Source: an uncultured virus (IMG/VR IMGVR_UViG_3300028592_000009)
Lineage: Duplodnaviria > Heunggongvirae > Uroviricota > Caudoviricetes
Length of the DNA stretch: 20,000 nucleotides
Reading direction: 5' to 3' (one strand)
Virus record (IMG/VR): IMGVR_UViG_3300028592_000009
Under the pieces are notes generated by a model. The model worked only from the letters and a program-made list of their open reading frames with translations. It had not been told where the DNA came from and ran no database searches. This document shows, piece after piece, positions 1,698 through 19,871 of the stretch (its first letter is position 1; each line of letters begins with the position of its first letter). The position numbers and the translations under genes were made by a program.

Positions 1698-2360
1698 CTA
1701 CGACCCGCCGGTCAGCTTGTCGTAGCAGATGTCGCCGATGCCCCGTTCGCGAGTCCGCTCGTTGGTGAGCGGGCTGCTGCAGACTCCGCACTGTCCGACC
1801 TTCTGGCCGAAGAGGGCGAACGCCTCCGTGGGGTTCTCGTGGATGGCGCTGAGGATCTTGTACACCCGCAGCAAGCGGCGCCGACGGAAGTCGCCCGGAG
1901 CTCCGGTGAGCTCGCTGACGTCCATCCGTCGATTGCCTCGTCCGTCGTCCATGAGGCGGTGAACCTGGTAGAACCGGATCGTCTCGTCCTCGGACTGGAG
2001 CGCGTACTTGCCGGGCTTGATGGACAGGAACTTGTCGTCCCAGCCCGCGTACCCGGCCTGTGCGCCACGGACGTACGGCTGCTTGAGCATCCTGGAGATG
2101 AAGGAGCTCGCGTCGGCGAACCCGAGCGAGTTGATCATCTCCTCGTACTCGGCCTTCTCCAGCTCCTTGTACTCAGCCAGCCGCTCCCGCTCCCGACCCA
2201 GCGCGTGCGCCAGGGACAGCTGCTTGTGAGTGGACTTGGCCTGGAGACCGTGGCTGTGACGGAGGACACGGTCGTGGGCGGTCTCCCGGGGCCGAAGCCC
2301 CGAGCAGGTCCTTACATCGTCGACCGTGTCGTGCTCGCCCTTGCAGTTACCGCACCTCAT
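1698..2360 (-). CDS. hypothetical protein with N-terminal CxxC-H-C motif and C-terminal DUF6011-like zinc finger
   Basis: MRCGNCKGEH...C at the start; CGVCSSPLTNERTRERGIGDIC at the end. ATGA overlap with the upstream stop; SD AAGGAG. Confidence 0.8.
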   Translation of the reverse strand: MRCGNCKGEHDTVDDVRTCSGLRPRETAHDRVLRHSHGLQAKSTHKQLSLAHALGRERERLAEYKELEKAEYEEMINSLGFADASSFISRMLKQPYVRGAQAGYAGWDDKFLSIKPGKYALQSEDETIRFYQVHRLMDDGRGNRRMDVSELTGAPGDFRRRRLLRVYKILSAIHENPTEAFALFGQKVGQCGVCSSPLTNERTRERGIGDICYDKLTGGS

Positions 2361-3322
2361 CGGATCTCCTTCCGCGTGTCGCCGACACGGGTCTGGCCGA
2401 GGTCGGCGTTCCGGCCGTCGTTGCGACCCCGGGAGTAGGACTCGCCGATGATCCGCTGCTGGTAGCTGCGACCCTCCTTGATGTTGTTGTCCTCCTTGTA
2501 CTTGTCGTACGCGTCCTGGACGAGCGCCCCCTTGTCGCGGAGGGCGAGCTCGGCGCCGGTCGTCGCCTTGACCTGAGCGTCGCGGTGCTCCTGGAGCTTG
2601 TACAGACGGATCGAGACTTCGGTGCGGAAGCCCTCGGCGTAGGACCGCTGGAAGGTGACCGGCGTCTGGACCGCGCGGTACTCCAGACCCATGAGCTTGC
2701 ACCAGCGCTTGCAGGCGCGGATGAGGCGGCCGCCGTCCTTCTTCTTCTCGTGCCACTCGACCCACGGCCACGGCTCACCGATGGAGTCCTTGGGGTCGAG
2801 GTTGTGCTCCTCCATCCAGTGCATCCGGGCGATGTTCATCTGCGAGCAGGTCCGCTCCCAGTTGATCCCCGCCTCGTGCAGGATGTAGACGTTCTCGTCG
2901 TACGAGCGCTGCATGTCGACCTTCGGGTCGATCTTGCGCAGCAGCTGGAGACGGAGGCTCGTGTAGACCATCTCGGCGAACTTGATGTCCGAGGGCAGAC
3001 CGATGAAGTCGCCGAAGCCGTTGCTGTACCCGTGGAAGGCGCAGTCGTAGTGCTGCGCGACGCGGATGCAGAGGTTGTACAGGCTCGTCGCGATCGGGCT
3101 GTCCATACCGGCGAACTGGAAGCGAACGCGCTCCGGCATCTCGACCGGCTTGGCCTTGTCCTTGTTCGCGGCGGCGAGGATGGCCGCGTCGATCTGGTAC
3201 TTGGCCATCAGCTCGTCGGCCTTGGCCATGAAGTTGTTGGCGGCCTCCTCCTGCCCGCTCTCGCGGTGGGACTCGGCGGAGTTGAGCAGCGCCTGGATCT
3301 TGTTGATCATGGCGTCAGACAT
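2357..3322 (-). CDS. DUF2786-domain phage protein
   Basis: INKIQALLNSAES...EEAANNFMAKADELMAKYQID matches the DUF2786 pattern; C-terminal RSYAEGF and YSRGRNDGRNADL are typical of the family. Confidence 0.85.
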   Translation of the reverse strand: MSDAMINKIQALLNSAESHRESGQEEAANNFMAKADELMAKYQIDAAILAAANKDKAKPVEMPERVRFQFAGMDSPIATSLYNLCIRVAQHYDCAFHGYSNGFGDFIGLPSDIKFAEMVYTSLRLQLLRKIDPKVDMQRSYDENVYILHEAGINWERTCSQMNIARMHWMEEHNLDPKDSIGEPWPWVEWHEKKKDGGRLIRACKRWCKLMGLEYRAVQTPVTFQRSYAEGFRTEVSIRLYKLQEHRDAQVKATTGAELALRDKGALVQDAYDKYKEDNNIKEGRSYQQRIIGESYSRGRNDGRNADLGQTRVGDTRKEIR

Positions 3323-3334
3323 GGGGTGCTCCCT

Positions 3335-3391
3335 GGTCTCCTCAGCATGGGTACCTTACCCATGGACGTGACTGGCTGTCACGTTTCGACC
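3335..3391 (-). ncRNA. type II hammerhead ribozyme HHR1
   Basis: Minus strand: A-GGTC GAAA CGTGAC-AGCCA-GTCACG TC^ CATGGG-TAAGGTA-CCCATG CTGAGGA GACC, then AGGGAG..ATG. Predicted cut 3' of 3365. Confidence 0.95.
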
Positions 3392-3400
3392 TGGACGGGA

Positions 3401-3625
3401 TCAGTCGGTGCCGAGCACGATGTGCTCGTTGTTCGGGACGTCGCGGAGGGCGGCCTCGCGGATCGCCTCGTCCGACTTGTGCTTGTGCAGCATGTGCGCC
3501 AGCTTCTCGAGCTGCTCGGCGGAGATGTTGATCGCGTCCTGTCCGTCGTCGAGGAGGACGCCCTCCCATCCCTCGGACACGGTCGCCCAGAGGTAGTCGT
3601 CGAGCTGGACTCGTTCGTTCGCCAT
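3401..3625 (-). CDS. hypothetical protein (74 aa)
   Basis: MANERVQLDDYLW...; SD AGGAG. Confidence 0.7.
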   Translation of the reverse strand: MANERVQLDDYLWATVSEGWEGVLLDDGQDAINISAEQLEKLAHMLHKHKSDEAIREAALRDVPNNEHIVLGTD

Positions 3626-3633
3626 GGTCGCTC

Positions 3634-3762
3634 CTAGCAGCCCTGGTTGAGGATGAAGATGATGCCGAGCAGGACGATGATCAGGAGCACGATGCATCCG
3701 AACATCAGCTCGATGGCCATCTTGAGCATGTCGCCGTAGGACATGTTGGTGAAGCGCTTCAC
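3634..3762 (-). CDS. single-TM micropeptide (42 aa)
   Basis: GTG start overlapping the upstream TGA; SD GGAGG; LMFGCIVLLIIVLLGIIFIL. Confidence 0.6.
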   Translation of the reverse strand: MKRFTNMSYGDMLKMAIELMFGCIVLLIIVLLGIIFILNQGC

Positions 3763-4049
3763 GAGATCGCCTCCCACAGCGGACGGGGCGCGTAGGGGCT
3801 GATCCTGCCATAGCCGTTCACCTGGTCCGTGGCCAGCCACACGGCCTTGCGCGCCTCGTCGGCGAGCTCTCCGTCGATGTAGTCGGCGAGCTCCTCACCC
3901 GAGATGACGCCGAGCACGACCCCGGTGAGCGGGTAGGTCGGCTGCATCCCGACGAGCACCTCGACCTCGGAGACGTCGACACCGGCGTCCTCCAGGTCCA
4001 GCCGGATCTCTCCGAGCTTCTCGATGAGCTCCGTGAGCTTCAGCTTCAT
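3759..4049 (-). CDS. hypothetical acidic protein (96 aa)
   Basis: SD GGAGG directly after HHR2; good codon usage. Confidence 0.8.
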   Translation of the reverse strand: MKLKLTELIEKLGEIRLDLEDAGVDVSEVEVLVGMQPTYPLTGVVLGVISGEELADYIDGELADEARKAVWLATDQVNGYGRISPYAPRPLWEAIS

Positions 4050-4060
4050 GTTCCCTCCAC

Positions 4061-4123
4061 GATCTCGTCAGCACCCGTGCCATACGGGCGGACGCCACGG
4101 CTGGATGTCGCAGCGTTTCGATC
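4061..4123 (-). ncRNA. type II hammerhead ribozyme HHR2
   Basis: A-GATC GAAA CGCTGCG-ACATCCAGC-CGTGGCG TC^ CGCCCG-TATGGCA-CGGGTG CTGACGA GATC, then GTGGAGG..ATG. Predicted cut 3' of 4091. Confidence 0.93.
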
Positions 4124-4135
4124 TGGCTGTGGTGG

Positions 4136-4261
4136 TTACCAGTGGAGCCCGAAGGCTCGCAGGACCAGCCCGATGCCGACCCCGAGCAGGACCCCGAGGA
4201 TGGCGCAGGTGGCGATGTTCCACGGCGTGTCCGTGAAGAACGAGTTGAGCTTGCGAAGCAT
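4136..4261 (-). CDS. single-TM micropeptide (41 aa)
   Basis: MLRKLNSFFTDTPWNIATCAILGVLLGVGIGLVLRAFGLHW; GGAGG upstream. Confidence 0.6.
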   Translation of the reverse strand: MLRKLNSFFTDTPWNIATCAILGVLLGVGIGLVLRAFGLHW

Positions 4262-4358
4262 GAGCCCTCCCGAGGCCCTAGGCGGCCGTCTACGGGCCGC
4301 GCGTTGCCGGGTGAGCCCCTTCGCCCACCCGGCTTGCGTTCGGCGCTTACGTTGGCGC

Positions 4359-4901
4359 CTACGGCGTCTCGATGAACCCGGCCTCGTCGGCGTCACCATT
4401 CTCGACCGCCGCGAGCTGCGCCTCGGAGACGGCCGGATAGAGGCCAGCCGGGTGCTCGGTGAAGTTGCTGGCGCTGGAGCAGCCGATGTACTGGAGCTCG
4501 CACTCGATCACGCGGAGCTCGCGGTTGCGGATCTCCGTGAGGACGTTGTACCGAGCCTTGAGCTGCGCCTGGAGCCAGCTCGGGTCGATCCAGGCCGAGG
4601 CCCGCATCTTCTCGTTCGCCTTGAGCTCCAGGTACGCGAGCCGAACGAACTCGTCGACGTTGCCGAACTGCTCCAGGGTCGGCTCCAGACCGATCTCCAT
4701 GTCGGTCCGGTTGCCGAAGGACTCCTTGAGGAGGTACTCGACCTCGTCGTTCTGCTCCTGCGCCCGGAGGCGGTCGATGACCTCGTTGGCCCGCTTCTCA
4801 GCGTTGAAGCCGAGGATGTCGACGAAGACCTCGATCGTCTCCGCCGTGTCGAACTCCAGGTTGGTCTTCTCGATGAGAAGGATCCGGATACCCATAACCA
4901 C
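4359..4901 (-). CDS. hypothetical acidic protein (about 180 aa)
   Basis: AAGGAG after HHR3, then GTG (4899-4901) or ATG (4893-4895). Confidence 0.78.
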   Translation of the reverse strand: MVMGIRILLIEKTNLEFDTAETIEVFVDILGFNAEKRANEVIDRLRAQEQNDEVEYLLKESFGNRTDMEIGLEPTLEQFGNVDEFVRLAYLELKANEKMRASAWIDPSWLQAQLKARYNVLTEIRNRELRVIECELQYIGCSSASNFTEHPAGLYPAVSEAQLAAVENGDADEAGFIETP

Positions 4902-4913
4902 GCTCACTCCTTG

Positions 4914-4966
4914 AGAGCTCCTCAGCACCGGCTCTTACCGGCGGACGCCCGAAGGCGTTTCGCTCT
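4914..4966 (-). ncRNA. type II hammerhead ribozyme HHR3
   Basis: A-GAGC GAAA CGCC-TTCG-GGCG TC^ CGCCGG-TAAGAG-CCGGTG CTGAGGA GCTC. Stem III capped by a cUUCGg tetraloop. Predicted cut 3' of 4944. Confidence 0.95.
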
Positions 4967-4975
4967 TGCCTGGCG

Positions 4976-5015
4976 CCCGGTGCAGGGGTTTGGGTGGTCG
5001 CCACCCTGCACCGGG
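4976..5015. terminator. 12-bp GC hairpin after the 161-aa gene (attenuator or processing hairpin)
   Basis: CCCGGTGCAGGG(N16)CCCTGCACCGGG; no U-tract. Confidence 0.45.
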
Positions 5016-5029
5016 GCCGTCATGGGGTG

Positions 5030-5515
5030 TTACTCAGCGGCCTTGGCGGCCGTGCGGCGGGTGCGCCGGACTCGCGGCTTGGCCACGGGCGCCTCCTCCT
5101 TGGCCTCCTCGACCGGAGCGGTCTCGGCCACGGCCTCCTCGACCTTCTCCGCGTCGTCCGACAGCGCCTGGTCGGCCTCGCTGTCGTACTCCTCGGGCTT
5201 GGTCTCCTCGGCGACCGGCGCGGCCTCCTCGCCCTTGAGCTTGGCGAGCTCGGCCTCCAGCTTGGCGAGCTTGCGGGCCTTGGCCTCCTCGGCCTTCTTG
5301 GCCGCCGCGACCTTGCGGTCGGCGAGGTTCGCCTGGTTCTCCGGGCTGGCCTGGAAGTCCAGGCGGAAGGACACCGCGAGCTGGACGGTCTTGAGGTCGG
5401 GCTTGACCCCCGTCTTCTCCTCGATCCAGGCGGCGAACGCCTTGTGGAGGTCGGTGGGCTCGGCCTTGGCGCGCTCGGCGAAGGTCTTCTTCTTGGAGGC
5501 GGTGTTCTCGGTCAT
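5030..5515 (-). CDS. Ala/Lys/Glu-rich protein, paralog of 10513-11073
   Basis: N-terminal about 80 aa are clearly homologous to the 186-aa ORF; basic C-tail KPRVRRTRRTAAK. Confidence 0.85.
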   Translation of the reverse strand: MTENTASKKKTFAERAKAEPTDLHKAFAAWIEEKTGVKPDLKTVQLAVSFRLDFQASPENQANLADRKVAAAKKAEEAKARKLAKLEAELAKLKGEEAAPVAEETKPEEYDSEADQALSDDAEKVEEAVAETAPVEEAKEEAPVAKPRVRRTRRTAAKAAE

Positions 5516-5527
5516 GGTAACTCCTAG

Positions 5528-5598
5528 GGACTCCTCAGCACCGGCACTCTACCGGCGGACCATCGGGGCGGCCTCTCGACCGCCCCTAGGTTTCGTCC
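5528..5598 (-). ncRNA. type II hammerhead ribozyme HHR4
   Basis: A-GGAC GAAA CC-TA-GGGGCGGTC-GAGA-GGCCGCCCC-GAT-GG TC^ CGCCGG-TAGAGTG-CCGGTG CTGAGGA GTCC, then CTAGGAG..ATG. Predicted cut 3' of 5558. Confidence 0.92.
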
Positions 5599-5612
5599 TG
5601 TGTACTGCTTCT

Positions 5613-5847
5613 CTCGCACCCGCCGGGACCTACCGGCTGCTTGTGCGAGGCGCGTCGACCAGTCGATTAGCCGAGCTACGGGTTTTGTGGAGGTCCCGTT
5701 CCTGTCAGAAGTCAGCGGCCCTTGCGGGGCGCGATCTCAGCCGTCTTCCTGGGCTGTCCTACTCGGGCTCGCGGTCTTCGGGCTGCGTCTCGACCGTCGG
5801 CTGGATGCGCCGTCCCGGGAGTTCCTCGCTTGCCCTGCTCGCTTACG
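5613..5847 (-). ncRNA. structured leader RNA, copy A (unassigned family)
   Basis: No credible ORF. Shares sequence blocks and covarying hairpins with 9334-9737. Lies between a promoter and HHR4. Confidence 0.75.
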
Positions 5848-5978
5848 AGTAGAACTATGCGCCATTCCTCCGGGGAAGGCAAACACCCATCTACCTGCGC
5901 ATTCATCGCGTTTGCCCTGGTAGGGGGCTTGCGAAGATTCTATAATTTCTTTCAAGAAATTACATATGCGCAGGTAGA
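5843..5978. repeat. duplicated promoter/operator module, copy A
   Basis: Aligns without gaps to 9733-9868 (offset 3890). Contains three CWGGTAG boxes and an AT-rich tract. Confidence 0.85.
5854..5882 (-). promoter_or_regulatory. promoter driving the HHR4-HHR1 operon
   Basis: TTGCCT-N17-CATAGT; hexamers identical to those at 9744-9772. Confidence 0.75.
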
Positions 5979-6039
5979 CATGAGTGTCGACCATCTACGG
6001 CGATTCACCGCGCCTCAGCGCGAATCGGGCGAAACCGCC

Positions 6040-6468
6040 CTACAGCGCCGTGAGCTTCCACAGCGAGCTGTCCTCCAGGCGCACAATCTGGGAGCCGTCC
6101 GAGGCCTTGCCGACGGGCTCGTACAGCTCCCAGGTGCCCGGCTTCTCCCAGGGGGCGCGCGGCTTGGCACGGGGCGGCACGGAGGCCGGGGTGCCGTCGC
6201 TGTGCGTGATGGGCTCATTCAGGTCCGCCAGGGGCACACCGGCCACGGCGGGCTGAGCCTTGGGCGCCGCACTGTTGACGCGCCAGACGTGTCCCTTGGA
6301 GATCACGTCGATGTCCATCTTGTTCTGAGCGATGATGCGGCGCATGACAGCGCGGACCTGCTCGTCGCGGAGGCCGGTCTCCTTGCAGGCCTCGTTGATG
6401 ATGATGGTCTGGCCGATGCGCGCGACCAGGTACTTGGTCATGGTCGACTGCACGTTCATGTTACCCAT
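6040..6468 (-). CDS. putative winged-HTH DNA-binding protein (142 aa)
   Basis: IIINEACKETGLRDEQVRAVMRRI...VISKGHVWRV fits an HTH plus wing; SD AGGAGG after HHR5. Confidence 0.7.
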   Translation of the reverse strand: MGNMNVQSTMTKYLVARIGQTIIINEACKETGLRDEQVRAVMRRIIAQNKMDIDVISKGHVWRVNSAAPKAQPAVAGVPLADLNEPITHSDGTPASVPPRAKPRAPWEKPGTWELYEPVGKASDGSQIVRLEDSSLWKLTAL

Positions 6469-6484
6469 GTTGCAGAGCCCTCCT

Positions 6485-6546
6485 AGACTCGTCAGCGGCC
6501 GTCTACGGCCGGACCGCACCCCGGTGACCCGGGGCCGGTTTCGTCC
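6485..6546 (-). ncRNA. type II hammerhead ribozyme HHR5
   Basis: A-GGAC GAAA CCG-GCCCCGG-GTCA-CCGGGGT-G-CGG TC^ CGGCCG-TAGA-CGGCCG CTGACGA GTCT, then AGGAGG. Predicted cut 3' of 6512. Confidence 0.93.
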
Positions 6547-6555
6547 TGTGGAGGA

Positions 6556-7188
6556 TCAGACGTAGGACCAGGAGCGCACGACCGACATGGTGCCATGGCT
6601 GGCGACCCGCTGCCTGGCCGCCTTGAGCAGCTCGTCCTGGTCGGGCTCTCCGAGCACCTTGACGCGCTGCTGGCTGATCTTGGCCGGATACTTGAGCCCG
6701 TGCTGCTTGTCCATCTGCACGACGGCGAGCCTGTCGTAGCGGTTGAACTCGCTGTCCTCGAACCGGAGAATCACGCCCTCCATGCCCACGTACCGGCCAC
6801 GGGTGGTGAGCGACTTCACGCGCTTGCCGATGCCGGGGGTGGACCAGTTGTCCGTGGCCGACTTCACGAGCATGCGGATCGTCCACTCGTCGGCCGCCCT
6901 GAGCACGTCGATCGTGGCGTCGGCGGAGGCGTTGTGGTGGTACGTCCAGCCACGGGTCGTCGCGTACTGGATCGTCTTGACGCGCTCCTCCTCGGCGTCC
7001 CACACGACCGCGTAGAAGTCGCTGTCGTCGTGCATGTTGCGCTCGTAGATGCCGATCACGGCTCCGAGATAGGTCGTCTCGTGGGCCTCAAGGTGCAGTT
7101 TGTTGAGCGCCTCGTCGGAGCTGTACTGGTTGGGGTCGTACCCCTGCTCCTTGCCGTGCCAGGGGTTGGTGCAAGTGATGATGGGCAT
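6556..7188 (-). CDS. hypothetical protein (210 aa), possible KOW/SH3-like C-terminal domain
   Basis: Start MPIITCTNPW after GAGGAGG; GIGKRVKSLTTRGRYVGMEGVI resembles a KOW motif. Confidence 0.8.
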   Translation of the reverse strand: MPIITCTNPWHGKEQGYDPNQYSSDEALNKLHLEAHETTYLGAVIGIYERNMHDDSDFYAVVWDAEEERVKTIQYATTRGWTYHHNASADATIDVLRAADEWTIRMLVKSATDNWSTPGIGKRVKSLTTRGRYVGMEGVILRFEDSEFNRYDRLAVVQMDKQHGLKYPAKISQQRVKVLGEPDQDELLKAARQRVASHGTMSVVRSWSYV

Positions 7189-7201
7189 GATTCCTCCTCG
7201 G

Positions 7202-7254
7202 GAGCTCTTCAGCAGGACCGTGCAGCCCTGGACGCTCACATGAGCGTTTCGCTC
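7202..7254 (-). ncRNA. type II hammerhead ribozyme HHR6
   Basis: A-GAGC GAAA CGCTC-ATGT-GAGCG TC^ CAGGGC-TGCACG-GTCCTG CTGAAGA GCTC. Predicted cut 3' of 7231. Confidence 0.94.
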
Positions 7255-7259
7255 TGGGT

Positions 7260-7433
7260 GGCGACCTCCGCACCCCTCCATATGAGTGCAGAGGCCGCCT
7301 GCGGGCCATTTCGAACAAGGCTCGTGCCCGGGCACAACCCGGTCGGACGATCGTGCTCCTAGGAGTGCACTAGCGAAAGCCGTGCTGCACGAGCCAGGTC
7401 TTACGGATCCCCGCGTTCCGGCCGTCGCCGGAA
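7260..7433 (-). ncRNA. candidate structured RNA upstream of HHR6
   Basis: Non-coding gap with a 16-bp hairpin (7260-7299), a 9-bp helix (7319-7327/7387-7395) and a 7-bp hairpin (7416-7433). Confidence 0.45.
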
Positions 7434-7436
7434 GTC

Positions 7437-7586
7437 TTATGCCAGCTCCAGGCCTCTGTCGAAGCCGCACTGGGCATGGGCGACGATGCTGATGGCGCCC
7501 GAACGATCGGCCGTCCTGAACTCAGCCATCTCGTCGTCCGGCCCCTCGTCGCAGAGCTCGCAGTCGTCGTTGAACTCGGGCAGCAT
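7437..7586 (-). CDS. small CxxC...HxxC protein (49 aa)
   Basis: MLPEFNDDCELCDEG...VAHAQCGFDRGLELA; TGATG coupling to the upstream gene; below the ORF-track cutoff. Confidence 0.65.
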   Translation of the reverse strand: MLPEFNDDCELCDEGPDDEMAEFRTADRSGAISIVAHAQCGFDRGLELA

Positions 7587-7843
7587 CAGAGGGCCTTCCG
7601 AACGTTGATGGAGAGGACGACCGGGTTGGTCCAGATGTAGTTGCCGGAGCCGTCGGTGTTGCTCTGGTGGACGGTCGTCCTCCGGTCGATGCGGTATGCC
7701 ATCACGAACCGCGCGGCCATCGTTATGTCCGGGAGCTCGATGTCGAGCGTGCCGGTTCGATCCATGCCGTGGACCGTGGCCTTGAAGGCGGCCACGTTGC
7801 TCGTCAGCAGACCCTGCAGAACGGTGTCGATCTCGATGGTCAT
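7586..7843 (-). CDS. hypothetical protein (85 aa)
   Basis: SD GGAGG directly after HHR7. Confidence 0.78.
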   Translation of the reverse strand: MTIEIDTVLQGLLTSNVAAFKATVHGMDRTGTLDIELPDITMAARFVMAYRIDRRTTVHQSNTDGSGNYIWTNPVVLSINVRKAL

Positions 7844-7852
7844 GATTCCTCC

Positions 7853-7909
7853 GGTCTCTTCAGCAGGCGCACCTTACGCCTGGACGTCGCTGGCTGCGAC
7901 GTTTCGACC
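7853..7909 (-). ncRNA. type II hammerhead ribozyme HHR7
   Basis: A-GGTC GAAA CGTCGC-AGCCA-GCGACG TC^ CAGGCG-TAAGGTG-CGCCTG CTGAAGA GACC, then GGAGG. Predicted cut 3' of 7883. Confidence 0.95.
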
Positions 7910-7973
7910 TGGTTGGAGAAGTGGTCTTGCCGGCATGCCCATAAGCAGGCTAGCCAGACGGATAGGGCGGCCA

Positions 7974-8069
7974 TCAGGCCGCGCCCCAGAAGATCGCCAG
8001 GCTGACGGCGACAACGCCGATCACGAACAGGATGCACCCGAGGGCCATCTGGTCTCCGCTAACACCCAT
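7974..8069 (-). CDS. single-TM micropeptide (31 aa)
   Basis: MGVSGDQMALGCILFVIGVVAVSLAIFWGAA; TGATG-coupled. Confidence 0.6.
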   Translation of the reverse strand: MGVSGDQMALGCILFVIGVVAVSLAIFWGAA

Positions 8070-8188
8070 CAGAAGAACTCCACCTTCGAAACGATGAACA
8101 TGAGCACGGACATGAGGACCATCCCGACCGCCATCAGCGCGAGCAGGAACAGGAAGCAGCCGCGCGCTTCCTCGTAGCCGTCGGCCAT
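8069..8188 (-). CDS. single-TM micropeptide (39 aa)
   Basis: MADGYEEARGCFLFLLALMAVGMVLMSVLMFIVSKVEFF; TGATG-coupled. Confidence 0.65.
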   Translation of the reverse strand: MADGYEEARGCFLFLLALMAVGMVLMSVLMFIVSKVEFF

Positions 8189-8307
8189 CAGAACACCAGC
8201 CCCATCAGGATGGTGAAGCCGACACCCAAGGCGAACCCCAGTCCGCCGAGACCGACAAGTATCTTGAACAGGTCGCTCCTGTCGCGATCGCTGGAACCCA
8301 TCAGCAT
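8188..8307 (-). CDS. single-TM micropeptide (39 aa, Gly-rich helix)
   Basis: MLMGSSDRDRSDLFKILVGLGGLGFALGVGFTILMGLVF; TGATG-coupled. Confidence 0.62.
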   Translation of the reverse strand: MLMGSSDRDRSDLFKILVGLGGLGFALGVGFTILMGLVF

Positions 8308-8435
8308 CAGTGCTTCCTGCCCTTCTTGTCCTTGCCGGTGTTCTTGATGAGGACGTAGACGATCCAGCAGATCACGGCGATGAAGCCGAAGAACAGCAGG
8401 GTGTCCACGATGAGGATGAACAGTTCAGCGGGCAT
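8307..8435 (-). CDS. single-TM micropeptide (42 aa, basic C-tail)
   Basis: MPAELFILIVDTLLFFGFIAVICWIVYVLIKNTGKDKKGRKH; SD AAGGAG after HHR8. Confidence 0.72.
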   Translation of the reverse strand: MPAELFILIVDTLLFFGFIAVICWIVYVLIKNTGKDKKGRKH

Positions 8436-8446
8436 GCACTCTCCTT

Positions 8447-8529
8447 GAGCTCGTCAGCACGGCCACCTAGCCGTGGACGAGCCCCGGGCGAAGGGGTGTT
8501 GGGGAGTCCGCCCGGGGCTCGTTTCGCTC
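8447..8529 (-). ncRNA. type II hammerhead ribozyme HHR8
   Basis: A-GAGC GAAA CGAGCCCCGGGCG-(18-nt C-rich loop)-CGCCCGGGGCTCG TC^ CACGGC-TAGGTG-GCCGTG CTGACGA GCTC. Predicted cut 3' of 8476. Confidence 0.94.
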
Positions 8530-8533
8530 TGTC

Positions 8534-8842
8534 CTACTTGTCCGTCGGGACGTTGACGACCGCGTCGTCCGAGCCCCAGCCCGCGTTCGGGTCCGAGCCC
8601 TGGTCCTGCGGGATGTTGACGACCTCGCTGTCGTTGCCGAGGTACTGGTTCTCGTCGCCCATGTTGGCGATCTCCTTCTTGATCTGGTTCCAGATCGTCT
8701 CGTCGTCGAGGTGCGGGAACGTCTTCTTGGCGATGACGAAGACCGACTGAATCTCGATGTCTCCCTCAGCCCAGCAGGGCATGCTGCCCGGGCCCGGCAC
8801 CTTCTGCTTGGTCAGCTCCTGGATGTCGAGCTCGACCTTCAT
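8534..8842 (-). CDS. hypothetical acidic protein (102 aa)
   Basis: SD AGGAGG after HHR9; internal repeat DSEVVNIP/DDAVVNVP. Confidence 0.78.
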   Translation of the reverse strand: MKVELDIQELTKQKVPGPGSMPCWAEGDIEIQSVFVIAKKTFPHLDDETIWNQIKKEIANMGDENQYLGNDSEVVNIPQDQGSDPNAGWGSDDAVVNVPTDK

Positions 8843-8852
8843 GCTTCCTCCT

Positions 8853-8911
8853 AGGACTCATCAGCACGGCTTCCTTAGCCGTGGACCCGGCTGGCTACCG
8901 GGTTTCGTCCT
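8853..8911 (-). ncRNA. type II hammerhead ribozyme HHR9
   Basis: (TG)A-GGAC GAAA CCCGG-TAGCCAG-CCGGG TC^ CACGGC-TAAGGAA-GCCGTG CTGATGA GTCC. Abuts the upstream stop codon. Predicted cut 3' of 8884. Confidence 0.96.
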
Positions 8912-9237
8912 CAGTTGAACTGCGCCTCGACCAGCGTCCTGTGTCGGCGGATGGCCTGGCGTACCGCGTCGTACTTCGCCCCGTGCCGGAACGCCACGGC
9001 CTGCATGGCGCCTCTGACGCATCCGAGCTTGACCCAGTCCTCGTACAGCCTGGCGTCCGACACCCTGAGCGGAATGTACTCGCGCTGGACGATGTCGTAC
9101 CGAGCCTTGAGCCGCCTGCGGATGCAGGTTTCGGTCACTCCGTACTGGAGCGCCGTCTGCGAGACGTTCCGACCGAGCAGCTCCCACATCGTGTGGATGC
9201 GCTCGTTGTCCTGGGGCAGCTGGCTGGTTGCCGGCAT
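8911..9237 (-). CDS. putative double-HTH DNA-binding protein (108 aa)
   Basis: NVSQTALQYGVTETCIRRRLK and AMQAVAFRHGAKYDAVRQAIRR; SD GGAGG after HHR10. Confidence 0.72.
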   Translation of the reverse strand: MPATSQLPQDNERIHTMWELLGRNVSQTALQYGVTETCIRRRLKARYDIVQREYIPLRVSDARLYEDWVKLGCVRGAMQAVAFRHGAKYDAVRQAIRRHRTLVEAQFN

Positions 9238-9248
9238 GCTCACCTCCG

Positions 9249-9322
9249 AGACTCTTCAGCAGCGCCGTTCAGCGCCGGACAGCCCGCCCCCGGGTCATGG
9301 CCAAGGGCGGACTGTTTCGTCT
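9249..9322 (-). ncRNA. type II hammerhead ribozyme HHR10
   Basis: A-AGAC GAAA CAGTCCGCCCTTG...CGGGGGCGGGCTG TC^ CGGCGC-TGAACG-GCGCTG CTGAAGA GTCT. Predicted cut 3' of 9278. Confidence 0.93.
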
Positions 9323-9333
9323 TGTTGTGTTGC

Positions 9334-9737
9334 CTGCACCCCTGTGGGACCTACCACAGCGCTTGTGCAGTTCGCAGCTAGCTTTGCACCTTGCCTACCA
9401 ACCTGATGTGTCCACGTAGAAGCGGGTTCCGTGTCTCCCTCGCTTGTACGTGGCCGTCCCAGGCCAGTCGCGTGCTGTCAGCCTCTCGGCTGTCGCCTGC
9501 CACTACCGGTTGTGTGGGGGTCCGGTTCCCGTCTCGAGTCAGCCGCCTGCTGGACACCTTCTCCAGAGGGGGCGATTAAGGCCGTCTCCCTTGGCCCGCC
9601 CGGGTTGTCGTCACCGGGCTCCGAGTTCGACCGCGAGGGCCAGCTTGGGGGATGGGTTCCCGGTTCACCCGTAGGTCGCTTCCGGTCCGCTCTCCCCGCC
9701 TCAGAGGGGGTCGGACCCTCTGCGACTCGGTGTTACG
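9334..9737 (-). ncRNA. structured leader RNA, copy B (unassigned family)
   Basis: About 400 nt without a credible ORF; homologous to 5613-5847 with compensatory changes and insertions. Confidence 0.75.
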
Positions 9738-9876
9738 AGGAGAACTATGCCCCAGTCGGGCTGAGAAGGCAAACAGCCTCCTACCTGGTCATTCATCGGA
9801 AAAGCCCTGGTAGGAGGCTTGCGAACAATCTTGAAGTTTTTTGAAGAAATCATGAAAGCCCTGGTAGGAGGCTTGC
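9733..9876. repeat. duplicated promoter/operator module, copy B, with an internal 22-bp direct repeat
   Basis: AAAGCCCTGGTAGGAGGCTTGC at 9801-9822 and 9855-9876; inverted partial copy AGCCTCCTACC at 9775-9785. Confidence 0.85.
9744..9772 (-). promoter_or_regulatory. promoter driving the HHR10-HHR5 operon
   Basis: TTGCCT-N17-CATAGT. Confidence 0.75.
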
Positions 9877-10003
9877 CGGCATGCCGAAGCCGTAGGCGCC
9901 CCGTAGGCGGCTCGCGAGCGCTCGCGAGGGCGCGGGTATCCGGGCGCGCCCGTTCGCCCCGTAGGCGGCCACGTAGCGGCTCTGCCGGGGCCGGAACGCA
10001 GAA

Positions 10004-10032
10004 CAGCCCCGCTCCCTCTCGGGGCGGGGCTG
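10004..10032 (-). terminator. intrinsic terminator
   Basis: 12-bp GC hairpin just after the stop at 10046, followed by TTCT on the minus strand. Confidence 0.7.
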
Positions 10033-10045
10033 CTGGGGCTGGATG

Positions 10046-10417
10046 CTAGTCGACGAACTCGCTCAGGATCGCGTAGACCTCGACCTTGGCCTTGCGGGTC
10101 GTGGCCGCCTCGGCGTTGACCCAGGGGCTCGTCGACTGGACGCCGTAGTCCTCGATCAGCTCGTCGCGCATCCGGCGGACCCGGTAGACCAGCTGCTTGG
10201 ACTGCTCGACCGCGTCGGCCTTGTACTTCTCGGCGACCAGGTACAGGCGGGTCCAGGCGTCCAGGACAGCCTCGGCCTTGGCCACGTCCTCCATCCGGCT
10301 GACCGGGACCCTGGTCGGCTCGGCGATCGCCTTGGTCAGCGCGTCGTACGCCTTGTTGAGGTTGGTGTTGGCCTTGGCGGCCTCAGCGATCACGGCGGCG
10401 GCGAGGGACTGGTACAC
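10046..10417 (-). CDS. hypothetical helical protein (123 aa)
   Basis: GTG start after AACAACAACAAGGAG. Confidence 0.8.
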   Translation of the reverse strand: MYQSLAAAVIAEAAKANTNLNKAYDALTKAIAEPTRVPVSRMEDVAKAEAVLDAWTRLYLVAEKYKADAVEQSKQLVYRVRRMRDELIEDYGVQSTSPWVNAEAATTRKAKVEVYAILSEFVD

Positions 10418-10459
10418 GGCGTTCTCCTTGTTGTTGTTCCGGTTGGCCTTACAGTAAGA

Positions 10460-10488
10460 ACCATACCCCAGTCAGGGTGGAGGCGCTA
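10460..10488 (-). promoter_or_regulatory. array promoter
   Basis: TAGCGC-N17-TATGGT. Confidence 0.75.
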
Positions 10489-10512
10489 CCCTCCACCCCG
10501 GGCTTTCCTGGA

Positions 10513-11073
10513 CTAGTTGTCGAGCTTGGGGCAGCAGGGCTTGGCGTCGTAGGCCATGTAGTTGTCCTCCAGGCTCGACTCACCCGAGTCGATCATGTCG
10601 GCGTAGATGATGTGGGTGACCTCGGTGTGGCTGCTGACCGTGACCGTCTCCTGGCTGTCGCCCTTGCGGCGGCTGCGCTTAATGTCGGCGCAACCCGCCT
10701 TGTGGACCTCCGGCTCGCCGTTGCCCTTGTACAGGATGGTGAGCTTGACCTTCTCGGCGGGCTCGACCGGGGCGGCCTCCTCGACCTTGGGCGACTCCTC
10801 CTTGCCGGCACGCAGCTTGGCCAGCTCGGCCTCCAGGCGCGCCTTCTTGCGCTCGGCCGCACCCTTGCGCTTCGCCTCGGCCTTGGCCTTGCGCTCGGCC
10901 AGGGAGGCCTGGTTCTCGGGGGAGGCCTGGAAGTCCATGCGGAGGGTGGTGACCAGCTGGACGGTCTTCAGGTCGACCTCGACCCCGGTCTTCTCGGTGA
11001 TCCAGGCGGCGAACGCCTTGTGGAGGTCGGTGGGGGCGGCGGCGGCGCGCTCGGCGAAGGACTGCTTGGCCAT
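10513..11073 (-). CDS. hypothetical protein (186 aa), paralog of 5030-5515, with C-terminal H..C..C..C domain
   Basis: Shared N-terminal domain; VHKAGCADI...KPCCPKL. Confidence 0.85.
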   Translation of the reverse strand: MAKQSFAERAAAAPTDLHKAFAAWITEKTGVEVDLKTVQLVTTLRMDFQASPENQASLAERKAKAEAKRKGAAERKKARLEAELAKLRAGKEESPKVEEAAPVEPAEKVKLTILYKGNGEPEVHKAGCADIKRSRRKGDSQETVTVSSHTEVTHIIYADMIDSGESSLEDNYMAYDAKPCCPKLDN

Positions 11074-11123
11074 TGTGGCTCCTCGTGTTAGGCTCGGGCT
11101 TCCTGCCCTCGCTCATGAGTAGA

Positions 11124-11152
11124 ACTTTACCCCAGTGGACTGGAGGTGGCTA
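11124..11152 (-). promoter_or_regulatory. array promoter
   Basis: TAGCCA-N17-TAAAGT. Confidence 0.8.
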
Positions 11153-11244
11153 CCTCCATTTGCAACTTTCTTGAAGATTCTTTCGGGAGGCCGTAGGCGG
11201 CTGTCTGCCGGCATGCCGGCATGAGCGGGGCGCCGGGCATGGGC

Positions 11245-11274
11245 GAGGCCCCCTCCTGGTGCGGAGGAGGCCTC
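11245..11274 (-). terminator. hairpin terminator
   Basis: GAGGCCCCCTCC..GGAGGAGGCCTC after the stop at 11290. Confidence 0.55.
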
Positions 11275-11289
11275 TACGAGGCGGGGCGG

Positions 11290-11559
11290 TCAGAGCTTGG
11301 GGAAGTAGTGCGCCAGGTCGAGGTCCATCTGGTCGGGGTTGTCGCTGGGGTGCTCGACCACGTCGTACCCCTTGGCGCTGAGGTTGTTGTGTCGGACCCA
11401 GTAGACCCAGCAGTCCTCGTCGCCGGTCTCCATGATCTCCAGCCAGGGCCCCTTGTGGCGGTAGGTGGTGGAGACGTCGAATCCAGTCTCGGCCGACGCC
11501 TGAACCATCGCCACGAGCTCCTCGATGCGGATCATGCCGTCCTCCTCGTTGTTGTCCAT
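11290..11559 (-). CDS. hypothetical protein (89 aa), probably leaderless
   Basis: ATG lies 6 nt after the -10 hexamer; begins MDNN. An internal start at M9 after GAGGAGG is possible. Confidence 0.75.
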   Translation of the reverse strand: MDNNEEDGMIRIEELVAMVQASAETGFDVSTTYRHKGPWLEIMETGDEDCWVYWVRHNNLSAKGYDVVEHPSDNPDQMDLDLAHYFPKL

Positions 11560-17075: not shown

Positions 17076-19871
17076 TTACTTGACGTTGAACTTGATCTCG
17101 GCGTCTGCAGGGATACGGATTCCCAGAATCACAGCGCGCCCCTTGTACGGGTCGCGACGGTACTTCGCGACCTTGGTGTAGCCCATTTCCTCCAAGCGCT
17201 TCCCGAACGCCTGGAGCCCCGGGATGTCCCGAGCCCTCTCGGTCTTGGACCAGACCTCGAAGATCTTGTACAGCGGCGTGACCTGTGAGACGTAGTGCTC
17301 GCCCTCAGGCGTGTGCTCGCCGATCTCGATGTCGCCCTCGGACGAGGCGTGCATGACCCACTTCTGCACGATGTCCGCGTCGACTCGGTACGAGGACGAA
17401 GCCTCGACGACCTCTTCCGGCTGGATCAGGCCCTCCGCGCGGTACAGGCGGAGCCCCTCGACCATCCAGTTGAAGACGCCATCCAGCTCGCCAGCAAACC
17501 CCTCCACGCCCCTGATCTTCTGGGACAGCTGGTCGTCACGGTCGGGGTGTCCCGGCGGGAACGCCACCTTCCACGGGACGACCTGGATGCGGTTCCAGAT
17601 CGCCTGGTCCTCGGCGTTGATCCGGCTCAGGTGGTTGGTCGCCACCATCACCAGGCACTCCGGCTGCCAACGCTTGTTGCCCTCGGCGTAGTTGCCTCGG
17701 GTCGACACGCCATCGCCGCCGGTCAACTGCTTGACGAAGCGCTCGTCCATCGGCTCGTTGGGTGCGAGCTCCATGGACAGTGCCAGACGTCGGCCACGGA
17801 TGGCGTCTCGGTCAGGGTCTCGGCCGCCCGTGTCGAACCGGCGCTTAGAGAGTACGCCGTCGGCCAGCGTCATGGCGTACTCCTCACCCATCACCGCCTC
17901 CAGCGTGTTGGTGAACACAGACTTGCCGGTGTCTCCAACTGCGCTGTACATGAAGGCGATCAGCTTCTGGTTGCCGTCACCCGAGAGCGCGTAACCGGCG
18001 AGCTTCTGGAGGTACTTGCGCGTCTCGGGGTTGGGCTGGTTCTTGGCCAGGAACGACTCCCACAGCGGAGCCCTCGCGCGAGGGTCGTAGGTGACCGGGG
18101 CGATGCGCGTGTTCATCTCATCGATGTCGTGCGGCTCGAACTCGCCCGTGCGCGTGTTGATCTGACCGTTCTGCACGGCGAAGGATCCTCGCGACTGGTC
18201 GAACTCGTCCATCGTGACCGAGATGCCCGGCTGGTGCTCAAGCTGCTTGGCAGCCTCGCGCATGCGCGCACCCTCCTTGCACTTCTCGATCCACTTCTCC
18301 GTCTCGATGAACAGCTCCTGCTCCTGCTCAGCCTTCAGGCGCGCACCGAACCATGCCGTTCTGCCCGGAGCGCCTCCCAGCCATGCAGCGACCCCTCCAG
18401 GCGCCTTGGCGAGCGCTCCGTTCTTGCCCAGGAGCGCCTGGAACGTCGTCCCGCTGGAGTTCGCCACGGTCCAGTCGTCAGGGAACGACGGAACATCCTC
18501 TCCAACGTACTGCGGCAGCTCGACATACGTCATGTAGTCTGTCAGGTCGGCCGTGGCTCGGCTTACGAGGGCGTTGGTATCGGGAGCCCAATGGGTGCCG
18601 GTCCAGGCGTACCACCTGCTCGCCTTGCCGCCGGATACGTGCCTGAACACTCGGCCGTACAGCTCCAGCATCCGCTTGCCGTTGCCCTTGTCATTGGGCT
18701 CGTTGTCAGAGGTGCTGCCGATCAGGCCCTCGAACGCGTCGTGGAACGCGGGGTAGCTCTCGGAGTCGATCGCCTGGGCGGCGGCCTCCTTCTGCTTCTG
18801 CTTGACGGAGATCTTGCCGGTCTTGTTGTAGTCGTCGAACAGCTCGGCCGTCGTGATCCCGAGGTGGTCGCAGATCGCCTGCATACCGTTCGGGTCGTCC
18901 CTATCGGTGCACGGCCCCTGGCTGGACTCGCACCACATCCGGACACAGCCCACGCCCTTGTCCGTCTCGCCCTGCTCGAACTCGAAGCTGGGGTTGCGGT
19001 CGGGGTGGTTCGGGTTGGGGCAGTTGGTCTTGTAGCGACTCGGGCCGATCGGCTCCAGCTGGTGTCCGGCCTTCTCCAGAGCCTGGACGAACCGGACCAT
19101 CGCAGGGCCCTCGGGCATGTCGACCGTGGCCAGGCGGAGCCCGTCGAGCTTCTTCAGACCGGCCTCTCGAGGCGCGCGGGCGCGAACCTCGTCCAGAGTG
19201 ACCTTCTTGAGCTGCGCGAGCGTCTTACCGGCCTCCAGGTGATCTCGGAGGTCCTTGCCCCGGATCGCCTCGCGGAAGAACACCTTGACGCCGACCTCGC
19301 GGAGCGCGCGCCAGCGACGGAGGGCCGATGCGGCTCCGGGGTAGTCCCGCTGCTTGGCGGGGTCCTCGTGGTTGAACCTTGCCTGGTGCTCGGGGTCGAG
19401 ATGGTCCCGGTCGACCATGATGTACACGGTCCCCAGGTAGCCACGGAAGTGCTCCGCCACCTCCTTCGGGAACCGAGTGCCCAGGTGCGTCGTGGTGGCG
19501 TAGGCGTCCGCCAGAGCCCAGCACGCCTCGCAGTCCGGCTCGCCCTCGCACAGGTACATGTGGGGGATGCCGAGCCGCTTGGCCTCGTGGACGCGCGGGA
19601 GCCCGTAGATCAACGCCACGTGTTCCGGGTTGGTCCGGTCGTAGTGGTGGCAGTACCGGAACGTCTTGTCGCCCTTGGGGCCTGCGGAGTGGTTGTCCAC
19701 AGTGATGAGGTAGCGGAACCGGCTGTACAGTCGAGTGCCGTGCGCGTCGTAGTACGGCATGAGGTGTGTGACCTCGCCGAAGTCCTTTGCTGCGCCCGTG
19801 CGAGTGCACTTGCAGAGGTCCTCGGATGTTGCGCGCGGGCGGTACTTGGCCCGCTGCTTTGCTGCTGCCAT
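17076..19871 (-). CDS. DNA primase/helicase (TOPRIM primase plus P4/D5-type SF3 helicase)
   Basis: TOPRIM: YLCEGEPDC, IMVDRD, KDLRDHL. Central CPNPNHPDRNPS...C..C zinc-binding element. D5_N-like NDKGNGKR...WYAWTGTHW. Walker A GDTGKS, VKQLTGGD and ATNH. Confidence 0.93.
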   Translation of the reverse strand: MAAAKQRAKYRPRATSEDLCKCTRTGAAKDFGEVTHLMPYYDAHGTRLYSRFRYLITVDNHSAGPKGDKTFRYCHHYDRTNPEHVALIYGLPRVHEAKRLGIPHMYLCEGEPDCEACWALADAYATTTHLGTRFPKEVAEHFRGYLGTVYIMVDRDHLDPEHQARFNHEDPAKQRDYPGAASALRRWRALREVGVKVFFREAIRGKDLRDHLEAGKTLAQLKKVTLDEVRARAPREAGLKKLDGLRLATVDMPEGPAMVRFVQALEKAGHQLEPIGPSRYKTNCPNPNHPDRNPSFEFEQGETDKGVGCVRMWCESSQGPCTDRDDPNGMQAICDHLGITTAELFDDYNKTGKISVKQKQKEAAAQAIDSESYPAFHDAFEGLIGSTSDNEPNDKGNGKRMLELYGRVFRHVSGGKASRWYAWTGTHWAPDTNALVSRATADLTDYMTYVELPQYVGEDVPSFPDDWTVANSSGTTFQALLGKNGALAKAPGGVAAWLGGAPGRTAWFGARLKAEQEQELFIETEKWIEKCKEGARMREAAKQLEHQPGISVTMDEFDQSRGSFAVQNGQINTRTGEFEPHDIDEMNTRIAPVTYDPRARAPLWESFLAKNQPNPETRKYLQKLAGYALSGDGNQKLIAFMYSAVGDTGKSVFTNTLEAVMGEEYAMTLADGVLSKRRFDTGGRDPDRDAIRGRRLALSMELAPNEPMDERFVKQLTGGDGVSTRGNYAEGNKRWQPECLVMVATNHLSRINAEDQAIWNRIQVVPWKVAFPPGHPDRDDQLSQKIRGVEGFAGELDGVFNWMVEGLRLYRAEGLIQPEEVVEASSSYRVDADIVQKWVMHASSEGDIEIGEHTPEGEHYVSQVTPLYKIFEVWSKTERARDIPGLQAFGKRLEEMGYTKVAKYRRDPYKGRAVILGIRIPADAEIKFNVK

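Follow-up and report, generated by a model that had tools for sequence, protein, structure and literature searches.

Type II hammerhead ribozymes have been described as clusters flanking prophage and phage genes (Perreault et al., 2011, PMC3088659; Rfam RF02276), and the idea that they cut long transcripts of phages into mRNAs the length of one gene dates from that 2011 report (PMC3088659). Type II hammerheads located near phage-like genes are reported to cleave in vivo in Desulfovibrio vulgaris (PMC8782182), and according to a 2019 review the purpose of bacterial and phage hammerheads is still undefined (PMC6765202). Engineered devices that sequester the Shine–Dalgarno sequence (SD) have been built with a hammerhead (Wieland and Hartig, 2008, as cited) and with a twister ribozyme (Felletti et al., 2016, PMC5052635); as presented in the 2016 article, cleavage splits SD and anti-SD onto different molecules, which raises expression. 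The engineered devices carry an aptamer and are regulated. When a hammerhead is placed upstream of the SD, as is the case for RiboJ-type insulators, it removes variable upstream RNA and gives a defined 5′-OH leader; the RiboJ design keeps the SD exposed.

Here we analyse ten hammerheads (HHR1 to HHR10) found in 20 kb of DNA from an uncultured phage; this whole stretch is referred to as the window. They share with the clusters presented in PMC3088659 the catalytic core, capped stems I and III and an open stem II, as well as the placement of several copies between single genes or short gene blocks. Judged by these defining features of their sequences, the window ribozymes are type II hammerheads of the clustered phage kind. 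The window differs from the clusters of that report in that every copy abuts an SD (0–4 nt) and in that a subset carries a helix outside stem II (the outer helix), whose 3′ strand is the SD and whose bulge lies on the 5′ strand. The published consensus has a pseudoknot partner in the 3′ tail (PMC3088659), and those window copies that Rfam lists score 24–27 bits, under its 37-bit cut-off. The phrase 'ribosome binding' is absent from the main text of PMC3088659.

Four 'closed' copies (HHR1, HHR2, HHR5 and HHR7) resemble the engineered devices in that SD and anti-SD form one ribozyme helix. Unlike in those devices, no sensing domain was seen in the window copies, and the helix is short, in many cases spanning the SD only in part. 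The six 'open' copies, with leaders of a uniform 39–43 nt, are closer to the RiboJ-type insulators, which the four copies with an anti-SD do not resemble. The full-text literature searched, with subscription journals outside its range, contained no description of an SD acting as a strand of a natural hammerhead helix, nor of hammerheads in Streptomyces phages.

Ten hammerheads and their setting

The window is GC-rich, carries its genes on the minus strand and corresponds, by megablast and tblastn, to the right arm of a ∼69-kb Streptomyces phage group. The same searches place Yara, PHTowN, Lizz, ShakeNBake, phiRKBJ001, Wentworth, Gibson, Rooney and Dryad in this group, and IMG/VR holds a near-identical contig of 45 kb. 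Among the 12 sequencing runs listed for the window, which are all of soil-metagenome DNA, none is of RNA. The ribozyme region is flanked by a DNA primase gene (17076–19871) and a dCMP deaminase gene, the latter placed by synteny with annotated relatives. A PHROGs search assigned the genes behind the ribozymes to a family of unknown function or to no family. Scanning of positions 2000–11500 gave 0 sigma-70-type promoter sites and nine terminator-like sites (5.9 expected), none of them informative.

A simple hammerhead pattern matched the window seven times (0.23 expected) and a looser one ten times, and all ten ribozymes lie on the minus strand. Each copy consists, in order, of a 4-bp stem II 5′ strand, CGAAAC, the stem III hairpin, GUC, the stem I hairpin, CUGANGAG and the stem II 3′ strand. 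CGAAAC and CTGANGAG are present in all ten, and the core columns of their alignment are invariant. The copies thus contain the type II core (CUGANGA … GAAA) with a cleavable U-H, here GUC, at the stem III/I junction, and three helices, of which I and III end in loops and II is open to the flanks, as in all 52 sequences aligned below. No match was obtained in the window at the Rfam gathering threshold (37 bits for RF02276). Below it, five of the ten copies score 24.1–26.6 bits, whereas a listing at E ≤ 10 does not include the remaining five; a one-family search of the related records with RF02276 gave a best E of 2e-5 and nothing above the cut-off.

A covariance model built from the ten window copies recovered exactly these ten (E ≤ 2e-13; next match E 0.11), as it does by construction, since it was built from them. 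Independent support that the ten are real comes from 34-kb right-arm stretches of six related phages, where the same model located 42 further copies, each lying on the strand of the genes. When the 52 copies from seven phages are aligned, 96.1% of the cells pair and compensatory changes occur at 13 of 17 pairs. Covariation scores 0.638, compared with 0.179 in shuffles (0/500 reach it) and 0.05–0.08 when the strands are slid, and all three helices are supported by covariation. On this comparative evidence the ten window ribozymes are real type II hammerheads for which self-cleavage is predicted, and we infer that they cleave in vivo.

All ten end 0–4 nt ahead of an SD, and each of the 52 copies has a GGAGG-like SD within a few bases of stem II, followed by a start codon. 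The distance from the predicted cut to the start codon is 39–43 nt in every window copy. Cleavage would therefore leave a uniform leader of this length, composed of the 5′-OH, the stem I hairpin, CUGANGA, the stem II 3′ strand, the SD and the start codon. Type II hammerheads between a stop codon and the next gene are common in uncultured phages: a scan of IMG/VR that covered one stem II type gave at least 144 such loci, and those listed typically have the stop 0–5 nt before stem II and the SD 5–35 nt after it. Many unrelated type II hammerheads (IMG/VR L022–L165) have a tail that starts with ATCAG directly after stem II, the complement of the core CUGAU; judging from this sequence, the 3′ product of cleavage could fold back on itself and so disable the core by forming a hairpin, which might, for instance, prevent religation. 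One hammerhead of Yara (L021, 10690–10759; E 1e-11) lies within an annotated coding sequence, gene 88 (10658–10909 in the locus). Since an SD and an ATG follow the ribozyme, the annotated start of this gene is probably too far upstream.

Two ribozymes, HHR4 (5527–5599) and HHR10 (9248–9323), terminate long non-coding stretches of 440 nt (5600–6039, minus strand) and 720 nt (9324–10045, minus strand) respectively. These stretches share a 135-nt repeat (5843–5977 and 9733–9867, minus strand; 76% identity) and are 71–81% conserved over 270–570 nt in 6/6 relatives, with two copies per genome. This conservation looks high relative to the 27–49% protein identity of the two neighbouring genes that were compared. 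In both stretches there is an inverted repeat without variation, CTACC.GG … CC.GGTAG, along with a candidate promoter motif, TTGCCT-N17/18-CATAGT. Should this be a promoter, the role of HHR4 and HHR10 would be to trim 5′ leaders and not to separate cistrons. Paralogous genes at 5030–5515 and 10513–11073 (minus strand), both phrog_20596 (E 7e-48 and 3e-76), are found one downstream of each conserved non-coding stretch and hammerhead region. An 8-bp palindrome, TGCCGGCA (7928–7935, minus strand), recurs 0–25 nt upstream of several hammerheads in different phages; it also precedes ribozymes in L016–L021 and sometimes forms part of a longer hairpin, GTGCCGG..CCGGCAC.

The outer helix in the window and in its relatives

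The first-pass annotation had reported pyrimidine tracts complementary to the downstream ribosome-binding site just 5′ of HHR1, HHR2, HHR5 and HHR7, and had found such tracts not evident at HHR3, HHR4, HHR6, HHR9 and HHR10. The four complementarities are present on the minus strand as it had written them. In each, the tract lies 3–5 nt upstream of stem II and pairs with the SD region, thereby continuing stem II. HHR5 (6484–6547, minus strand, as are all features that follow) has the core CTGACGA at 6489–6495, the stem I hairpin at 6496–6511, C17 at 6512 and a predicted cut at 6512|6511; its stem II is formed by GGAC (6543–6546) and GTCT (6485–6488). The anti-SD TCCTCC (6550–6555) immediately follows the upstream stop TGA (6556–6558) and is separated from stem II by ACA (6547–6549). 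It forms 6 bp, including one G-U, with GGAGGG (6478–6483), the SD of a 142-aa gene (ATG at 6468), located 1 nt (A 6484) after stem II. For HHR7 (7852–7910; predicted cut 7883|7882; stem II GGTC/GACC), TTCTCC (7915–7920) pairs across the bulge AACCA with GGAGGA (7847–7852), the SD of an 85-aa gene (ATG at 7843), which adjoins stem II. Around HHR7, four tiny hydrophobic open reading frames (42, 39, 39 and 31 aa; 7840–8435, minus strand) are chained by ATGA/TGATG overlaps. A further 44-aa frame opens at the last overlap, continues straight across HHR7 and overlaps the start of the next gene by ATGA. From its sequence this may be a chance open frame; if it is translated, ribosomes would unfold HHR7.

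The tract of HHR2 (4060–4124; predicted cut 4091|4090; stem II GATC/GATC) is CCACCAC (4129–4135), located after the stop TAA (4136–4138) and before the spacer AGCCA. Its CCAC (4129–4132) pairs with GTGG (4057–4060), and the whole of CCACCAC can pair with one mismatch; GTGGAGGG (4053–4060) is both the 3′ strand of the outer helix and the SD of a 96-aa gene (ATG at 4049). For HHR1 (3334–3392; predicted cut between 3365 and 3364; stem II GGTC/GACC), TCCC (3397–3400) stands immediately after the stop TGA (3401–3403), is followed by the spacer GTCCA and pairs with the GGGA of the SD. Here an A and then GGGAG (3329–3333) follow stem II, and the SD of the 321-aa gene (ATG at 3322) is GGGAGC (3328–3333). 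The placing of the SD in a ribozyme helix is thus found in 4/10 copies and is partial, with 4–6 bp and 2–5 of the 5 SD core bases.

We compared the outer helix of each copy, allowing a 5′ bulge of ≤ 6 nt and a 3′ gap of ≤ 3 nt, with 3000 random 24-mers from the same strand. HHR5 and HHR7 each formed 6 bp (P = 0.041 and 0.017), HHR2 and HHR1 4 bp (P = 0.19 and 0.16), and the other six window ribozymes 1–3 bp (P = 0.43–1.0). The latter values agree with the five copies in which the first-pass annotation saw no tract and extend to HHR8, which it had not mentioned and which likewise lacks an anti-SD helix. The copies without an outer helix are HHR3 (4914–4966; 2 bp), HHR4, HHR6 (7201–7255; 1 bp), HHR8 (8446–8530; long stem III), HHR9 (8853–8911) and HHR10, all on the minus strand. 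HHR9 has a 5-bp stem II with nothing beyond it, and the upstream stop TGA overlaps the base that precedes stem II. Taken by itself, the window shows a marginal excess of pairing: the chance of at least two of ten copies at P ≤ 0.041 is ∼0.06. When all 52 copies were subjected to the same test, eight reached P ≤ 0.05, the median P was 0.77, and 37 formed fewer than 4 bp.

In a thermodynamic test, stem II was forced while the tail and 30 nt of 5′ flank could pair freely, and we summed the probability of pairing between the SD core and this flank. Mean SD masking over the 52 ribozymes of seven phages was 0.41, compared with 0.43 for shuffled flanks and 0.42 for random flanks (30-mers from the same strand of these phage genomes), and 10/52 reached P ≤ 0.10 against the random flanks. 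None of 100 random flanks reached the value of HHR5; for HHR7, HHR2 and HHR1 P was 0.05, 0.09 and 0.12. Flank pairing is two-sided: a minority pairs well, and the A/C-rich majority (e.g. CAACAACAA) pairs below random sequence. The anti-SD is thus no class property of these ribozymes, and we reject a class-wide anti-SD in this phage group, given a masking of 0.41 against nulls of 0.43 and 0.42. An outer helix general to type II hammerheads was also rejected, with 9 of 156 distinct IMG/VR copies at P ≤ 0.05 and a median P of 0.72; as type II hammerheads generally lack it, the helix is dispensable for the fold.

Comparison within families indicates that the pairing of HHR1 and HHR2 exceeds chance. 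The HHR1 family, upstream of the 321-aa gene, has 14 distinct members in phages and IMG/VR. Twelve of them form at least 4 bp and nine have P ≤ 0.05; the exceptions in pairing are the distant L181, which has no helix, and Yara, with 3 bp. The 3′ ends of the upstream genes vary, yet the spacer stop-TCCTC-AGCC(T)A is kept, which argues that the tract is part of the ribozyme module. In the window and in Yara the SD reads GGGAG rather than GAGGAG, and there TCCC or CCCC takes the place of TCCTC as the tract. For HHR2, a metagenome scan for a stem II of GATC/GATC with both flanks free yielded 49 loci (45 distinct), from which we analysed the lineage with the tail G(T/C)GG, comprising 15 distinct flank/tail combinations. 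Counted from stem II, positions 1–4 of the helix are paired in 15, 15, 14 and 15 of the 15, and positions 5, 6 and 7 in 10, 11 and 5. Position 2 is A-U in 12 combinations, G-U in one or two and G-C in one (L211, CTCCGC with GCGGAG), which, read from the sequences, is a compensatory series. In register, 86/105 cells are paired, compared with 40–57/105 when the strands are slid. The invariant pairs adjoin stem II and cover 2/5 of the SD core bases; coverage is full in 5/15. In both families, HHR1 and HHR2, the helix appears from these alignments to be under selection.

The two copies with the longest helices in the window, HHR5 and HHR7, have no well-conserved counterparts, so that their pairing may be due to chance. 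A related-locus search with the protein downstream of HHR5 matched solely the near-identical 45-kb IMG/VR contig. The only ribozyme-bearing counterpart of HHR5 is found in Yara, ∼180 nt past the previous annotated gene, and has a different geometry: the SD lies 6 nt from stem II, and CCUUC still covers the SD core GGAGG. The probability that this SD is paired to the flank is 0.92 (P = 0.01 against shuffles, 0.06 against random flanks). Homologues of the gene downstream of HHR5 in PHTowN and Wentworth have no ribozyme directly upstream, and the gene downstream of HHR7 has no homologue in the phage collection. The metagenome contig L229 encodes a type II hammerhead with a GATC stem, a distant relative, that has a 7-bp outer helix (GTTAATT with AATTAAT). 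This helix excludes the SD, which sits ∼17 nt further downstream.

Loop I may take part in the structure of the closed copies. Among the open copies, a UGG/CCA pseudoknot between loop I and the 3′ tail is possible in 15/40, compared with 13.4 expected from shuffled loops. Common to the closed copies are a UAAGGUA-type loop I and, on the 5′ strand, a bulge that ends in CC(U)A, and GG(U/C) of loop I can form at least 3 bp with this 5′ bulge in 11/12 (7.0 expected from shuffled loops). The pairing might be the tertiary contact that the published consensus puts in the 3′ tail.

A proposed closing helix, SD masking and product release

We tentatively favour, at slightly less than even confidence, a model in which, for a subset of copies, the outer helix has been selected as a structural element of the ribozyme, with a brief and self-resolving occlusion of the SD as a consequence. 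The ten hammerheads would punctuate early or replication-arm transcripts, each fused to the ribosome-binding site of the next gene. In the subset (HHR1, HHR2, HHR5, HHR7 and the orthologues of HHR1 and HHR2) the spacer between stop codon and stem II would pair with the bases after stem II, and the resulting helix–bulge–helix would close stem II, which is open otherwise. As ribozyme and SD adjoin, some or all of the SD would serve as the 3′ strand of the closing helix. The helix would keep stem II shut and may give folding priority over the 30S subunit, the footprint of which would cover the catalytic core. Occlusion of the SD would be brief and constitutive, ending when the products part or when a ribosome terminating upstream melts the helix. 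At a distance of 0–4 nt between SD and stem II, a bound 30S subunit would lie over the core, so that keeping the SD hidden until folding and cutting are complete could serve to protect processing and not to regulate translation. Two sequence features suggest that the helix is structural rather than purely SD-directed: the invariant pairs of the HHR2 family adjoin stem II, and L229 has an outer helix without the SD.

The energetics of stem II are ambiguous in this respect. The HHR2 family (−1.8 kcal/mol) and HHR5 (−2.1 kcal/mol) have the weakest stems, compared with −3.8 kcal/mol. The idea that the outer helix compensates for a weak stem II gave a mixed result: the HHR10 family is also weak (−2.1) and has no helix, whereas the HHR1 family and HHR7 have a strong stem II and yet possess one. 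The unconstrained minimum-energy fold of HHR7 contains the three-way junction and the outer helix, which are thus predicted to be compatible with each other.

The first-pass annotation had proposed that translation is gated by cleavage, i.e. that the anti-SD is selected to mask the SD in the uncut RNA and that translation is licensed only by self-cleavage and product release. We regard this as plausible but less likely, although several observations fit it. The topology is as required, the pairing appears selected in two families, and the tract usually directly follows the stop codon. In the Yara counterpart of HHR5, CCUUC covers GGAGG even though the SD is displaced; a pairing that skips 6 nt to reach the SD core fits selection for masking better than a helix adjacent to stem II. 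The HHR10 family, with its weak stem II and no outer helix, points the same way. Engineered twister and hammerhead constructs of this SD–anti-SD design, as described in PMC5052635, are 5- to ∼100-fold up in expression when the ribozyme is active. On the other hand, 6/10 window copies lack the helix, as do most of the 52, and the flanks of these pair with the SD below random. Coverage of the SD core is partial (two of five bases for HHR2, complete in a third of its family), and the 7-bp outer helix of L229 does not contain the SD.

Nearest-neighbour folding, with tertiary structure, ribosomes and helicases outside the model, was carried out unconstrained at 37 °C on the uncut RNA and on the 3′ product. 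The predicted probability that the SD core is unpaired rises modestly upon cleavage for HHR2 (0.48 to 0.78), HHR5 (0.20 to 0.62) and HHR7 (0.03 to 0.23), as cleavage-gated translation would have it. It stays at 0.60 for HHR1, however, and HHR3 (0.24 to 0.48) and HHR8 (0.38 to 0.59), which have no anti-SD, gain similarly. The topology agrees with the first-pass annotation, with the anti-SD placed 5′ and the SD 3′ of the cut, so that only stem II plus the outer helix would hold the cleaved products together. Net product binding at 30 °C with a 16-nt flank is predicted to be −2.6 kcal/mol for HHR1, −9.7 for HHR2, −2.6 for HHR5 and −6.5 for HHR7. Such weak binding implies that the products part quickly, within ∼10 s or less at an assumed on-rate of 1e6 per M per s, which again suits masking. 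With a 45-nt flank the HHR5 products bind with −15 kcal/mol through extra pairing with the upstream coding sequence, a value set aside on the assumption that this stretch is translated. Release after cutting is plausible, and its predicted effect is modest.

A gate would also need something to set it. No riboswitch or aptamer family was detected in the window even at E ≤ 10, and stems I and III are plain hairpins. Since no ligand-sensing domain was found, unmasking would be constitutive and self-driven rather than a switch with an input, and with a fast ribozyme the masked state would last only seconds. Cleavage-gated translation is thus supported in topology, in the conservation of HHR1 and HHR2 and in the weak binding of the products, and is weakened by the six copies without a helix, by masking at chance level and by the modest predicted gains.

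Complementarity that arose by chance and has no function, at least at HHR5 and HHR7, appears quite improbable. C-rich sequence next to a purine-rich SD pairs easily; for 30-mers drawn at random from these genomes, pairing with the SD core is predicted ∼42% of the time. The marginal significance of the window taken by itself, the HHR5-downstream homologues of PHTowN and Wentworth that have no ribozyme directly upstream and the lack of a homologue for the HHR7-downstream gene in the phage collection are all in keeping with chance. It fails, however, for the HHR1 and HHR2 families, with their differing upstream genes, compensatory series and register test, and HHR5 exceeds 100/100 random flanks in the thermodynamic test.

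Positions 0–3 nt past a stop codon are within reach of a terminating ribosome, as judged from ribosome footprints. Translational coupling, in which a ribosome terminating upstream opens the SD helix independently of cleavage and the ribozyme merely sits in the hairpin 'loop', would explain why the tract lies 0–2 nt past the stop in HHR1, HHR2 and HHR5 and why nearly all family members have the order stop, 0–3 nt, helix, but we consider it a poor candidate, because the Yara counterpart of HHR5 is ∼180 nt past the previous annotated gene, HHR7 has no ordinary stop nearby, and efficient cleavage would separate the cistrons before most ribosomes arrive. The suggestion of the first-pass annotation that ribosomes terminating at an adjacent stop possibly tune the switch finds such a stop at three of the four closed copies, and neither at HHR7 nor at the HHR5 counterpart of Yara.

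Whether or not the structural closing helix that we favour also delays translation, the locus bears on what phage hammerheads are for. It is conceivable, if improbable, that the closed copies are natural ribozyme ON devices, aptamer-less and self-timed, in which the SD of the next gene is a strand of the closing helix and translation follows cutting and shedding. If true, these devices might also be tunable by ribosomes terminating upstream, and they would share an operon with open ribozymes whose SD is exposed at once. One transcript, together with the cultured relatives Yara, PHTowN, Gibson, Dryad and Wentworth, offers ribozymes that differ in whether the SD lies inside or outside the closing helix. 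Such a set allows a cheap and direct test of what self-cleavage determines: translation, the stability of the mRNA, or the boundaries of transcripts alone. A helix that gates translation would give a synthetic design in wide use its precedent in nature; otherwise, the 5′-OH leaders, with their uniform 39–43 nt, would still document natural insulator-like processing.
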